From a virus: a DNA stretch of 16,129 bases. The position numbers and the translations under genes were made by a program. The notes below the pieces were generated by a model, which ran no database searches, was not told the DNA's origin, and worked only from the letters and a program-made list of their open reading frames with translations. Positions 13,015-15,648 of this stretch are shown in pieces (positions within the stretch are counted from its first letter, which is position 1; the number at the start of each line of letters is the position of its first letter). The DNA lies in UHGV virus genome UHGV-0120322. The stretch is one strand, 5' to 3'.

Positions 13015-13163
13015 ACATCTGAATTTCACAGCGCATCTCACGCGCATATTACATCACCCGAGCCTTTCAGAAAGTTGAGCCTGAGAACTGCCGTATATGG
13101 TGGCGACCATCTCGGGGCGGCTTTTCTGTGAGACAGGCTCACTTTCTAAAAGGTAAAGACGCT

Positions 13164-13652
13164 ATGAACCAATTAGAAGAAAAGCTTCAAAGAATGATTT
13201 CCTTATACAAGGAAGATAACTGCCAAAAAGTTCCTGAAAACATCGCAGAGTTAATGGAATTGGCAAGTGAATTTTCTGGCATGCTTAAGTCGTCAGGTGT
13301 TCGGTCAGCGTTCTTTGTTGAAATGCTGATGCACGGCGGACTTATGGCAACAATGAGACGTGTAATGGAAGACCAGAGAAAAGAACCTCCTCAGGTATAC
13401 GTTTTGTCATCGAAGAAAACTGGGCTAACCAAAATTGGGTATTCATCCAACATTCCACAACGCATCAAATCGCTTGGCAACTCTGGACCAGACTGCTTGA
13501 AGCTTGAGTGCCTGATCCCTGGTGGAAGAGAAACTGAAAACATGCTTCATCGCAAATTTGCCGCAAAGAGAAAGCACGGTGAATGGTTCGCCCTGTCCAA
13601 GGATGACATTGAGGGATTGAAATCTGTAGCGATTACTTCTGATGGCTATTAA
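13164..13652 (+). CDS. GIY-YIG superfamily / T5orf172-domain protein (162 aa): helical N-terminal region plus C-terminal T5orf172-like nuclease-fold domain
   Basis: C-terminal motifs VYVLSSKKTGLTKIGYSSN ... R ... E ... GEWF match the T5orf172 (GIY-YIG-like) pattern; AAGG SD; sits where lambda carries bor; lower GC than the lysis genes. Confidence 0.7.
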   Translation: MNQLEEKLQRMISLYKEDNCQKVPENIAELMELASEFSGMLKSSGVRSAFFVEMLMHGGLMATMRRVMEDQRKEPPQVYVLSSKKTGLTKIGYSSNIPQRIKSLGNSGPDCLKLECLIPGGRETENMLHRKFAAKRKHGEWFALSKDDIEGLKSVAITSDGY

Positions 13653-14120
13653 TGCTTGTTTAGAGCAATTTTCATAACAACTCTTCATTACAAAGCCCAT
13701 CTACTGGTGGGCTTGATAATGAAACCGTGATTTACATCCCCACAATCCGGGTATGTAAAAGATAGTTCAGGCGAGAACGGATTTAACTAAATCTGTGCGC
13801 CACCAGTTAACGGCAGTACCACGAAACAACCCAAGCCAGTAAGTGGGGAAATAACACCGGCAGCCACTGAAAGATGAACCTCCTGCCTTATGGCAAAAAA
13901 GATTCTTTGTGGTGGCGGACTGATGGAAAGACATCCTAATTTCAGCCAAACATTGAAGGAGTTGTTATGTCAGCAGAAGGTTTCAATAACCCATCAAAAT
14001 TCCGGGATGAGTGGGATAGCAGCGTAAAGAGTAAGTGATGCCATCACAAAAGCCATTCCCTACAGAGTGGCTTTGATAATGGCTTATACCCTACACGGGA
14101 TAACTTAACTGATATCCCTT

Positions 14121-14285
14121 TTAAAGGATAAAGGTATTCAAGCCTGACACATCATGCGCTGTATCGTCGCCGTATTCCCGTATTAACAGAGACCGTAGCC
14201 CGACGGGGAACTCCTTCTGCGCGAGTGTGCGGGAATAATCAAAAACGATGCACACCGGGGTTACCGGGTACACATATTTCATCAT
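14121..14285 (-). CDS. Possible small ORF (54 aa, MMKYVYPVTPVCIVFDYSRTLAQKEFPVGLRSLLIREYGDDTAHDVSGLNTFIL); uncertain
   Basis: Protein-like composition in a GC-rich patch, but no clear SD; under 60 aa so absent from the ORF track. Confidence 0.2.
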   Translation of the reverse strand: MMKYVYPVTPVCIVFDYSRTLAQKEFPVGLRSLLIREYGDDTAHDVSGLNTFIL

Positions 14286-14330
14286 GCCAGCGAGTCCGGT
14301 TCTGGCACGGAAGAAACCGGACGTTATGAT

Positions 14331-14741
14331 TTAGTGCGGAAATATTTGTGTAGTGTTCTGAATGTTCTCAGTAAAGAGTAATGAATTATCAAAGGTATAG
14401 TAATACCTTTTGTTTTCGTGGATATTTGTAATCCATCTGAAAACCCCTGCTGTAGCAAGATTTTTCCTGTATTCGTAAAATGATAACTCTCCTGATTTGA
14501 ATCCTTTTAAGGTGGCTTCTATAAGGCATTTATTTTTTGAAAATCTTACATTTACAACCTTACTCTGTCCTTTTATTAAAACCGTATTATCGTTTTCAAG
14601 AACAAGATGAATATTCTCTGTGGCTAAATAGTAAATGTAATGTGAGACATTGTGACGTTTTAGTTCAGAATAAAACCAGTGATAGTTTAAATTATTTCGC
14701 ACTTTATCGAATATTTGTTTAAAAATGGCAACCTGAGCCAT
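14331..14741 (-). CDS. ybcV: YbcV-like protein (DUF1398 family, 136 aa), start taken at [11 protein letters not shown]
   Basis: Recognised as similar to DLP12 YbcV; GAAGG SD 7 nt upstream of the second ATG (14741); very low GC. Confidence 0.8.
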
Positions 14742-14798
14742 TGTAGTACCTTCCATGTGATATGAAGGTACCTAGTCTGCACGATTATCTAAATTGCT

Positions 14799-15032
14799 TC
14801 AATCTGGTCTGACCTGCTTTCTGAGCAATTCAGTAATGTCACTCTTTTCTTTGTTTGCTTCAGGCGAAACTCTTTTTTCTGAGCACAGTCTTCGGCGGCA
14901 GGCTTCAATGACCCAGGCTGAGAAATTCCCGGACCCTTTTTGATCAAGAGCGATGTTAATTTGTTCAATCATTTGGTTAGGAAAGCGGATGTTGCGGGTT
15001 GTTGTTCTGCGGGTTCTGTTCTTCGTTGACAT
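14799..15032 (-). CDS. ylcI: Ribbon-helix-helix (Arc/MetJ/CopG-like) small DNA-binding protein, DUF3950/YlcI-like (77 aa)
   Basis: Basic N-terminus then RNIRFPNQMIEQINIALDQKG-SGNFSAWVIEACRRRL, a beta-strand/helix/G-turn/helix RHH pattern; the conserved NIRF motif is recalled for YlcI-type proteins (tentative). Confidence 0.6.
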   Translation of the reverse strand: MSTKNRTRRTTTRNIRFPNQMIEQINIALDQKGSGNFSAWVIEACRRRLCSEKRVSPEANKEKSDITELLRKQVRPD

Positions 15033-15189
15033 GAGGTTGCCCTGTATTCAGTGTCACTGATTTGTATTGTCTGAAGTTGTTTTTACGTTAAGTTGATGCA
15101 GATCAATTAATACGATACCTGCGTCATAATTGATTATTTGACGTGGTTTGATGGCGTAGATGCACGTTGTGACATGTAGATGATAATCA

Positions 15190-15420
15190 TTATCATTTTG
15201 CGGGTCCTTTCCGGCGATCCGACAGGTTACGGGGCGGCGACCTCGCGGGTTTTCGCTATTTATGAAAATTTTCCGGTTTAAGGTGTTTCCGTTCTTCTTC
15301 GTCGTAACTTAATGTTTTTATTTAAAATACCCCCTGAAAAGAAAGGAAACGACAGGTGCTGAAAACGGGCTTTTTGGCCTCTGTCGTTTCCTTTCTCTGT
15401 TTTTGTCCGTGGAATGAACA
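15190..15420. other. Lambda-type cos site: cosQ-side right-end sequence, cosN 12-nt cohesive end GGGCGGCGACCT at 15232-15243, cosB region up to the Nu1 start
   Basis: ...CCGACAGGTTACG|GGGCGGCGACCTCGCGGGTTTTCGCTATTTATGAAAATTTTCCGGTTTAAGG... recognised as the joined right and left ends of phage lambda with a few substitutions. Confidence 0.85.
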
Positions 15421-15648
15421 ATGGAAGTCAACAAAAAGCAGCTGGCTGACATTTTCGGTGCGAGTATCCGTACCATTCAGAACTGGCAGGAACAGGGAAT
15501 GCCCGTTCTGCGAGGCGGTGGCAAGGGTAATGAGGTGCTTTATGACTCTGCCGCCGTCATAAAATGGTATGCCGAAAGGGATGCTGAAATTGAGAACGAA
15601 AACCCGGCATCTGATGCCGTTAACGATTTGCTGAACACACCAGTGTAA
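15421..15648 (+). pseudogene. Terminase small subunit Nu1, N-terminal ~60 codons only, fused in frame to an unrelated 15-codon tail
   Basis: MEVNKKQLADIFGASIRTIQNWQEQGMPVLRGGGKGNEVLYDSAAVIKWYAERDAEIENE matches lambda Nu1 (winged-helix DNA-binding domain); the remainder NPASDAVNDLLNTPV does not. Confidence 0.85.

Follow-up and report, generated by a model that had tools for sequence, protein, structure and literature searches.

A ylcI/ynfO-family gene and a DUF1398 gene beside cos in a lambda-type prophage sequence, and the inverted repeat between them

The gene pair and its setting

We examined two neighboring minus-strand genes in UHGV virus genome UHGV-0120322, a stretch of 16,129 nucleotides (nt) that is referred to here as the window. 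A preliminary description of positions 14331-15032 had reported a ribbon-helix-helix gene followed by a DUF1398 gene, with an 8-bp inverted repeat over the start of the second, and had proposed that the repeat serves as an operator or as an mRNA hairpin and that the pair resembles a toxin-antitoxin module. Both open reading frames (ORFs) are present and belong to the Pfam families DUF3950 and DUF1398. The reported gap of 57 nt between them holds when the DUF1398 gene is read from its second ATG. The features of the locus are:

14331-14741, minus strand: DUF1398 gene (ybcV/ydfO family), 136 amino acids (aa), delimited by Pfam PF07166, a match to PDB 2HH8, the start given by the prokaryotic genome annotation pipeline (PGAP) and GC (guanine plus cytosine) content.
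14799-15032, minus strand: ylcI/ynfO-family gene, 77 aa, an ORF matching DUF3950 (Pfam), NCBIfam YlcI_YnfO_N and phrog_949, and annotated by PGAP in a 99.8% identical genome.
14883-15032, minus strand: conserved N-terminal domain of YlcI, codons 1-50, with a basic arm, an N-I-R-F-P strand motif and two helices (conservation, AlphaFold2, hhalign).
14799-14882, minus strand: variable, mosaic C-terminal tail of YlcI (alignment, and a drop in GC from 48% to 39%).
14745-14772, minus strand: inverted repeat GTACCTTC-N10-GAAGGTAC, arms 14746-14753 and 14764-14771 (repeat scan, RNA folding).
14774-14802, minus strand: candidate DUF1398 promoter, TTGAAG (14802-14797), 17 nt, CAGACT (14779-14774), with GATAAT (14789-14784) as a further element, read by eye from an alignment.
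14802-14818, minus strand: PdhR-box-like palindrome AGCAGGTCAGACCAGAT, core GGTCAGACC at 14806-14814 (alignment of three locus types; published K-12 sites from SELEX, systematic evolution of ligands by exponential enrichment).
15232-15243, plus strand: 12-nt cohesive-end sequence of cosN, GGGCGGCGACCT, read from the sequence in its cos/Nu1 context, 200 nt from the ylcI start codon.

A DLP12-like lambdoid prophage in E. coli strain LWY6 shares 99.8% identity with the window; in it the two genes are annotated as 'YlcI/YnfO family protein' and 'DUF1398 family protein', and PGAP places the DUF1398 start at the second ATG (14741). The gene order in that prophage is QuuD, porin, lysis genes, a T5orf172/KilA-N protein, DUF1398, YlcI/YnfO, cos, a truncated Nu1 and tail genes. 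ylcI is the gene closest to the right-hand cos end, and its transcription is directed away from cos. Similar DNA was found in 4789 of 5426 complete E. coli genomes, and also in lambda, HK629/630, DE3 and Stx phages. The pair is already known, though uncharacterised, and is annotated in K-12, lambda and most E. coli genomes: the K-12 names are ylcI and ybcV in DLP12, and ynfO and ydfO in Qin, while phage lambda has the order ylcI (64 aa), ybcW (opposite strand), ybcV, bor. In all of these the families, the strand and the position by cos/nohA-nohD (Nu1) are the same as in the window. Qin, in which ynfO is directly followed by ydfO, also shares the arrangement of the window; lambda and DLP12 differ in having the opposite-strand ybcW between the genes and a different YlcI tail.

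Both genes had been described as strongly AT-rich. This is true of the DUF1398 gene (31% GC) and not of ylcI, whose GC content of 45% is close to the 47.5% of the window; within ylcI the N-terminal domain has 48% and the tail 39%.

The protein encoded by ylcI scores above the cut-offs of PF13132 (DUF3950; E=5e-21, 74.6 bits, cut-off 25) and NF041551 (YlcI_YnfO_N; E=7e-9, 35.7 bits, cut-off 30), and matches phrog_949 (E=8e-34). Alignment of YlcI variants shows that residues 1-50 are almost invariant, whereas the tails that follow residue 50 are unrelated. The first 49 codons were compared in 30 distinct DNA versions, whose differences are overwhelmingly synonymous (that of locus L214 shows 10 synonymous and 0 non-synonymous changes), and YlcI is therefore a real protein under purifying selection. 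The type of tail tracks the downstream gene, different tails standing with different neighbors, and the alignment places the mosaic joint with the downstream cargo within ylcI, after about codon 50.

The ribbon-helix-helix assignment of YlcI is plausible from its predicted structure and from its register with P22 Arc. The AlphaFold2 model shows an extended basic N-terminus and helices at residues 19-32 and 34-52, at a pLDDT (predicted local distance difference test) score of about 90, and as a model it has the appearance of a ribbon-helix-helix monomer. The N-I-R-F-P motif aligns with N-L-R-W-P of Arc in both sequence-profile and profile-profile comparisons; the Arc query sequence was validated by its retrieval of named Arc proteins. 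When YlcI is compared with the Arc family profile by hhalign, the strand and helix A fall in register (P=0.0018, at a probability of only 15%), so that Asn11 and Arg13 of Arc correspond to Asn14 and Arg16 of YlcI. These two Arc residues contact DNA bases. Like Arc and Mnt of P22, YlcI is small and has a basic N-terminus and an N-[IL]-R-[FW]-P motif followed by two helices of matching length. Unlike them, it carries a variable C-terminal tail and lacks a significant Pfam, PDB or structure match: no Pfam ribbon-helix-helix family was retrieved even at E<=10, sequence and profile searches against the PDB gave no match, and structure searches returned weak matches only, many of them to ribbon-helix-helix antitoxins and regulators. 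A match to phrog_497 (HicB-like) had E=0.007. We consider it likely, but unproven, that the N-terminal domain of YlcI is an Arc-like ribbon-helix-helix and a putative DNA-binding domain.

The DUF1398 ORF encodes 141 aa from its first ATG (14331-14756) and 136 aa from its second (14331-14741). The protein is a full-length member of PF07166 (YdfO/YbcV/YcgX; E=6.5e-43, 146 bits, cut-off 22), residues 13-131 of the 141-aa form covering profile positions 1-119 of 119, and it matches YdfO, whose nuclear magnetic resonance (NMR) structure is PDB 2HH8, with E=2e-67. It is soluble and has no hydrophobic segment; the database labels 'envelope protein' and 'head protein' are for this reason unsupported. 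Its AlphaFold2 model is poor (mean pLDDT 47). Sub-threshold similarities to HEPN_AbiA_CTD (E=0.013), Csx23 (E=0.017) and anthranilate synthase (E=0.0015, 17 bits against a cut-off of 576) were treated as chance.

The inverted repeat and its alleles

The 8-bp repeat was found exactly where it had been reported, at 14746-14771, perfect over 8 bp and with 10 nt between its arms. It had been said to cover the Shine-Dalgarno sequence and the first ATG of the DUF1398 gene. The 3' arm does carry the Shine-Dalgarno sequence GGAAGG (14754-14749), 7 nt upstream of the second ATG, but the first ATG (14756-14754) lies in the loop adjoining this arm and has no Shine-Dalgarno sequence of its own. The second ATG is likely the real start of the gene.

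As RNA, the repeat is predicted to fold into a 9-bp stem, including one G-U pair, with a 10-nt loop and a stability of -11.9 kcal/mol (z = -4.05; equalled in 0 of 200 shuffles). Perfect 8-bp inverted repeats with spacers of 3-20 nt number 4.9 +/- 2.9 per shuffled window, against 15 seeds observed; with about five such repeats in each shuffled window, a single one is therefore not significant alone. Local stability falls from -11.9 kcal/mol in the perfect allele to -7.9 in an intermediate allele and to between -2.6 and -4.7 kcal/mol in the common alleles, and the mean probability that the Shine-Dalgarno sequence is unpaired is 0.12, 0.32 and about 0.4-0.5, respectively. Masking of the ribosome-binding site by an mRNA hairpin is thus physically plausible in this allele, but it is lineage-specific. 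The hairpin resembles known ribosome-binding-site-sequestering hairpins in having a stem over the Shine-Dalgarno sequence, a 10-nt loop and a stability well beyond that of shuffled controls. It differs from them in that it is not conserved, shows no covariation and is confined to a minority lineage; the variants destroy its pairing and none is compensatory. A search of the region against Rfam gave no family match.

The distribution of the repeat was followed in viral contigs and in bacterial genomes. The DUF1398 protein of 73 viral contigs is 99-100% identical to that of the window; 9 of these contigs carry the repeat allele GGTACCTTC and 5 the allele GGTACCCTC, and the others have CGCCCCTC, CGCCCCCTC, CACCCCTC, CGCCCCATC or CCCCCCTC. 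A pattern scan of IMG/VR gave, among the 120 loci listed, 7 perfect repeats (6%) and 6 with one mismatch, 89% being C-rich. Of 1024 records from complete E. coli genomes that hold this DUF1398 5' region, 133 (13%) have the exact repeat and 839 show the 90-95% identity of the C-rich alleles. The 5' arm is thus replaced by a C-rich tract in 82-89% of related loci, and the structure is not conserved.

The Qin type (TACGCCCCCTC) and the lambda/DLP12 type (TACGCGCCCTC), which serve as outgroups, are both C-rich. Since the C-rich form is found in the other loci and in both outgroups, the repeat is derived. Comparison of GGTACCTTC in the window with CGCCCCCTC in Qin and CGCGCCCTC in lambda shows how the repeat became perfect; on the 3' side of the Shine-Dalgarno sequence the window has GGTACTACA, against GGTTTATCT. 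Four clustered substitutions separate the repeat allele from the C-rich form. Three of them fix exactly the three mismatches to GAAGGTAC, and the fourth adds the G-U pair. The upstream variant GAAAGCAGG is linked to both repeat-type alleles, which fits a single origin, and the three exact repairs point to either stepwise selection or templated (quasi-palindrome) mutation. The repeat is a minority variant of this lineage; it is not a conserved control element, nor is it the signature of a toxin-antitoxin system.

The spacer 5' of the DUF1398 Shine-Dalgarno sequence (window 14764-14772) is a hot spot of variation in its own right. Near-identical loci display tracts of C4-C7 and several point variants, a pattern that resembles slippage-prone sequence. 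A cluster of 761 database proteins of 233 aa, in which YlcI and DUF1398 (DUF3950+DUF1398) appear fused, proved to be a gene-calling artefact in which an in-frame TGA is read as Trp. Functional read-through of this stop codon is unlikely because the common C-tract lengths (8, 10 and 11 nt, against 9) break the frame.

Separability of the two genes and the block next to cos

Our sample for separability consisted of 80 viral loci with an identical YlcI N-terminal domain. The DUF1398 gene lies directly downstream in 38 of them, is placed behind an insert of ~560 bp with the opposite-strand ybcW in 20, and is absent within 3 kb in 22, so that the two genes do not form the obligate adjacent pair of a type II toxin-antitoxin system. 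Where DUF1398 is missing, YlcI is mostly followed by opposite-strand genes (ybcW-like, csp-like, lysis genes) and in one group by bor. The GC content, which steps down from 48% in the YlcI N-terminal domain to 39% in its tail and 31% in DUF1398, agrees with this separability. Likewise, a survey of DUF1398 relatives of 21-48% identity, with one genome taken for each species, showed none with a YlcI-like gene upstream; they were the ycgX type beside bluR in Escherichia and relatives in Kluyvera, Pseudocitrobacter, Klebsiella, Raoultella, Salmonella diarizonae and Epilithonimonas. In the same set YlcI was seen only with cos-proximal prophage copies of DUF1398. Comparison of the DUF1398 protein with toxin and defence families gave none above threshold.

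The region upstream of DUF1398 carries elements that remain with this gene whether or not ylcI is adjacent. A scan for terminators found none between ylcI and DUF1398, yet the DUF1398 gene keeps its own box and is expressed in DLP12 uncoupled from ylcI. The intergenic DNA of the window can be aligned base by base with that of Qin and lambda, including the GGTCAGACC box, GATAAT and the Shine-Dalgarno sequence GGAAGG. The PdhR-like box overlaps the final codons of ylcI, and all three locus types (window, lambda/DLP12 and Qin) have it conserved ahead of the DUF1398 gene. It marks the exact point, about 76 nt 5' of the start codon, from which the window and lambda become homologous; where ybcW intervenes between the genes, as in lambda and DLP12, the box is found with ybcV. 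It is documented that PdhR binds in K-12 at genomic SELEX sites AtcTGGTctgACCtcTT, in the ybcV/ybcW spacer, and AAcaGGTcagACCAgaT, inside ynfO>ydfO, and that ybcV mRNA is down 10-fold in a pdhR mutant (PMC7660256). Expression of ydfO is induced >100-fold by an imidazolium ionic liquid (PMC4077768), and ybcW and ylcI form convergent overlapping transcripts in K-12 (PMC12288877). ydfO was scored 'essential' only in one screen by transposon-directed insertion-site sequencing (PMC5821084), and a Keio ybcV::kan strain exists (PMC3945230). A consensus scan for sigma-70 promoters on the minus strand of 14000-15450 returned none; the candidate TTGAAG-17-CAGACT, read by eye from the alignment, has identical geometry in lambda.

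The DUF1398 start codon also lies within a predicted 6-bp hairpin of the first six codons, AUGGCU...GGUUGCCAU (window 14725-14741, minus strand). This hairpin is predicted in the window and lambda types and only weakly in the Qin type.

On its other side, ylcI is linked to cos. A lambda-type Nu1 starts 388-389 nt from YlcI in 68 of the 80 viral loci, giving a constant cos side. Eight further loci (L214, L218, L223, L224, L240, L259, L283 and L286, compared with window 15033-15276) have other terminase genes, yet the 240 nt that run from ylcI through cosN retain 95-98% identity in them. As the block from ylcI to cosN is kept across different terminase sets, a mosaic joint therefore lies at cos, and ylcI belongs to a conserved 'right-end' block. 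The interval between ylcI and cos is >90% conserved in 71 distinct upstream sequences, and it contains one further repeat:

15102-15134, no strand assigned: ATCAATTAatacg / cgtcaTAATTGAT, an imperfect inverted repeat found by repeat scan within the conserved interval and placed about 85 nt upstream of the ylcI ATG.

The interval is retained even where the terminase side of cos differs. The repeat may be a candidate promoter or operator of ylcI and, if YlcI autoregulates, it would be a better-placed candidate site for autoregulation than 14746-14771.

A palindrome, ATGATAATGATTATCAT, at window 15180-15196 is likewise conserved in related loci. It resembles a Fur box, agreeing with the consensus at 15 of 19 positions. 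The palindrome overlaps a promoter-like site on the plus strand, GTGACA-16-TATCAT, which is directed across cos to Nu1.

Interpretation and neighboring features

Together the results make it probable that the locus holds two separate accessory genes of lambda-type prophages rather than a two-gene module, that the repeat is a derived allele and that the DUF1398 gene is under control of its own. In this arrangement ylcI/ynfO is the last gene before the right cohesive end, and its 50-residue N-terminal domain would travel with the 200-nt interval to cosN. The domain, small and strongly conserved, would probably bind DNA in the manner of Arc, and the C-terminal tail would be a recombination joint to variable cargo. 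One such cargo would be the DUF1398 gene, an AT-rich moron with its own upstream control region and a conserved GGTCAGACC box that corresponds to the published K-12 PdhR site. The repeat would have arisen by the four clustered substitutions in the spacer immediately before the Shine-Dalgarno sequence, a spacer otherwise C-rich and of variable length. Any transcript containing the 5' arm would then fold into the hairpin of -11.9 kcal/mol, with the effect of sequestering the Shine-Dalgarno sequence and lowering DUF1398 translation in this lineage. Thus, provided that the 5' arm is transcribed, the folding predictions indicate that the repeat allele probably dampens translation of DUF1398. What the analysis shows directly is the identity of the genes, how the alleles are distributed, that the genes are separable and how the RNA is predicted to fold; the ribbon-helix-helix fold of YlcI, the use of promoters in this phage, the effect on translation and the way the mutation arose are inferred.

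Several points weigh against this interpretation. The DUF1398 mRNA may start within the 5' arm, downstream of the candidate -10 element CAGACT (14779-14774), in which case the hairpin would form only in read-through from ylcI. The effect of the hairpin on translation is a thermodynamic prediction only. Of the 14 consensus positions, the PdhR box of the window has 9, and that of K-12 has one more. Finally, the YlcI tail of the window, CSEKRVSPEANKEKSDITELLRKQVRPD, does co-occur with an adjacent DUF1398 gene, and the tail and DUF1398 may interact in the adjacent arrangement.

The alternative that survives best, which we regard as possible though doubtful, is that the repeat has no regulatory effect, being a neutral polymorphism of this lineage within a C-tract spacer prone to mutation, and that the mRNA starts within or after the 5' arm so that the hairpin does not form in the main transcript. 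The spacer is hypervariable (C4 to C7, with point variants) among loci whose proteins are 99-100% identical, about five perfect 8-bp repeats are expected by chance per window, and the TTGAAG-17-CAGACT geometry, conserved with lambda, would put the start inside the 5' arm. Neutral drift fits less well with the pattern of the changes: all three arm mismatches are repaired with the rest of the arm unchanged, a G-U pair is added and an intermediate allele exists, which looks directional. In addition, with no terminator separating the genes, transcripts that read through from ylcI would still contain the hairpin in full.

A more ambitious account would join all of these elements. YlcI would be an unrecognised Arc-like repressor that controls cos-proximal cargo or transcription across cos; its gene would stand last on lambda-type chromosomes and be passed on together with the cosQ-cosN end as a single block, while the hairpin allele would be an adaptive, stepwise-selected translational silencer of the DUF1398 moron. 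We consider this account, taken as a whole, unlikely.

It is less likely still that the repeat is an operator through which YlcI represses DUF1398 in an autoregulated two-gene module, as had been suggested. YlcI is plausibly an Arc-like ribbon-helix-helix protein and the repeat lies between both genes, over the translation start. Nevertheless, 87% of the E. coli genomes that carry this DUF1398 subtype and 94% of the viral contigs sampled lack the left half-site, as do the lambda/DLP12 and Qin types, while the putative DNA-reading residues of YlcI are invariant despite the missing half-site and its N-terminal domain as a whole is near-invariant. YlcI also occurs where the site and DUF1398 are both absent. 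Half-sites with <=1 mismatch number 7 in the window against 8 expected, and none further was found near the ylcI promoter.

Least probable of all is a type II toxin-antitoxin pair with YlcI as antitoxin and DUF1398 as toxin, since the pair is separable and not obligate (in lambda and DLP12 a gene on the other strand intervenes, and the YlcI tail is of a different kind), DUF1398 has its own PdhR box, toxin and defence families were matched only below threshold (HEPN_AbiA_CTD, Csx23), and the proteins have been over-produced alone: YdfO for its NMR structure (2HH8) and in cells reported to gain resistance to oxidative stress (PMC4077768), and YbcV in an over-expression clone that was scored for glycogen and was therefore viable (PMC2853380). 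Such lone over-production, together with the lack of a toxin or defence family above threshold, argues indirectly against a toxin role.

The DUF1398 gene resembles the bor- and lom-type lysogenic-conversion morons of lambda. Like these, it is AT-rich (31% GC), is inserted between the lysis genes and cos against the direction of late transcription, has host-factor-dependent control of its own and varies in presence among similar phages; unlike them, it has no signal peptide or membrane segment. The significance of the repeat is small, as the module-like feature is a minority allele. Even lambda carries beside cos a strongly conserved small protein, YlcI, that probably binds DNA. The joint between backbone and cargo lies inside ylcI, and DUF1398 genes appear to be host-regulated (PdhR) morons. 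The points on YlcI, the joint and PdhR are useful for annotation and for work on the E. coli 'y-ome', but will be unsurprising to a phage specialist.

Downstream of the DUF1398 gene we found one more structure:

14294-14322, minus strand: 8-bp inverted repeat, hairpin of -13.4 kcal/mol followed by UACUACAAUGG without a U-run, 9 nt past the DUF1398 stop (z = -1.6, not significant; terminator scan negative).

It is possible that this hairpin is a non-canonical 3' end structure. Further downstream, a 54-aa ORF at 14121-14285 (minus strand) has no family match and is absent from the PGAP annotation; its DNA is partly homologous to the lambda ybcV-bor spacer. The plus-strand gene at window 13128-13652 encodes a 174-aa protein with MUG113/T5orf172 (GIY-YIG-like) domains, named KilA-N by PGAP, with a weak match to the PADLOC candidate defence protein PDC-S57 (E=8e-6).

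The prophage is defective on the far side of cos, where a truncated Nu1 (window 15421-15648 and beyond) directly adjoins a fragment of tail gene L. An inverted repeat with 26-nt arms that are 85% complementary occupies window 15340-15396, in the stretch from cosN to the start of Nu1, and most likely represents the inverted terminase-binding R sites of cosB. This repeat gave spurious weak microRNA matches in Rfam.

The right end of lambda with ybcV/ylcI, at the same offset, was also found on contigs of about 0.3-4.6 kb and at the ends of contigs of ~20-150 kb (one of 4 Mb) assigned to unrelated taxa, including Arcanobacterium, Pedobacter, Brevibacillus, Kitasatospora, Flavobacterium and Shewanella. 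These look like contamination with lambda spike-in or 3.6-kb nanopore control DNA, and proteins labelled YlcI in Staphylococcus or Bacillus have the same source.

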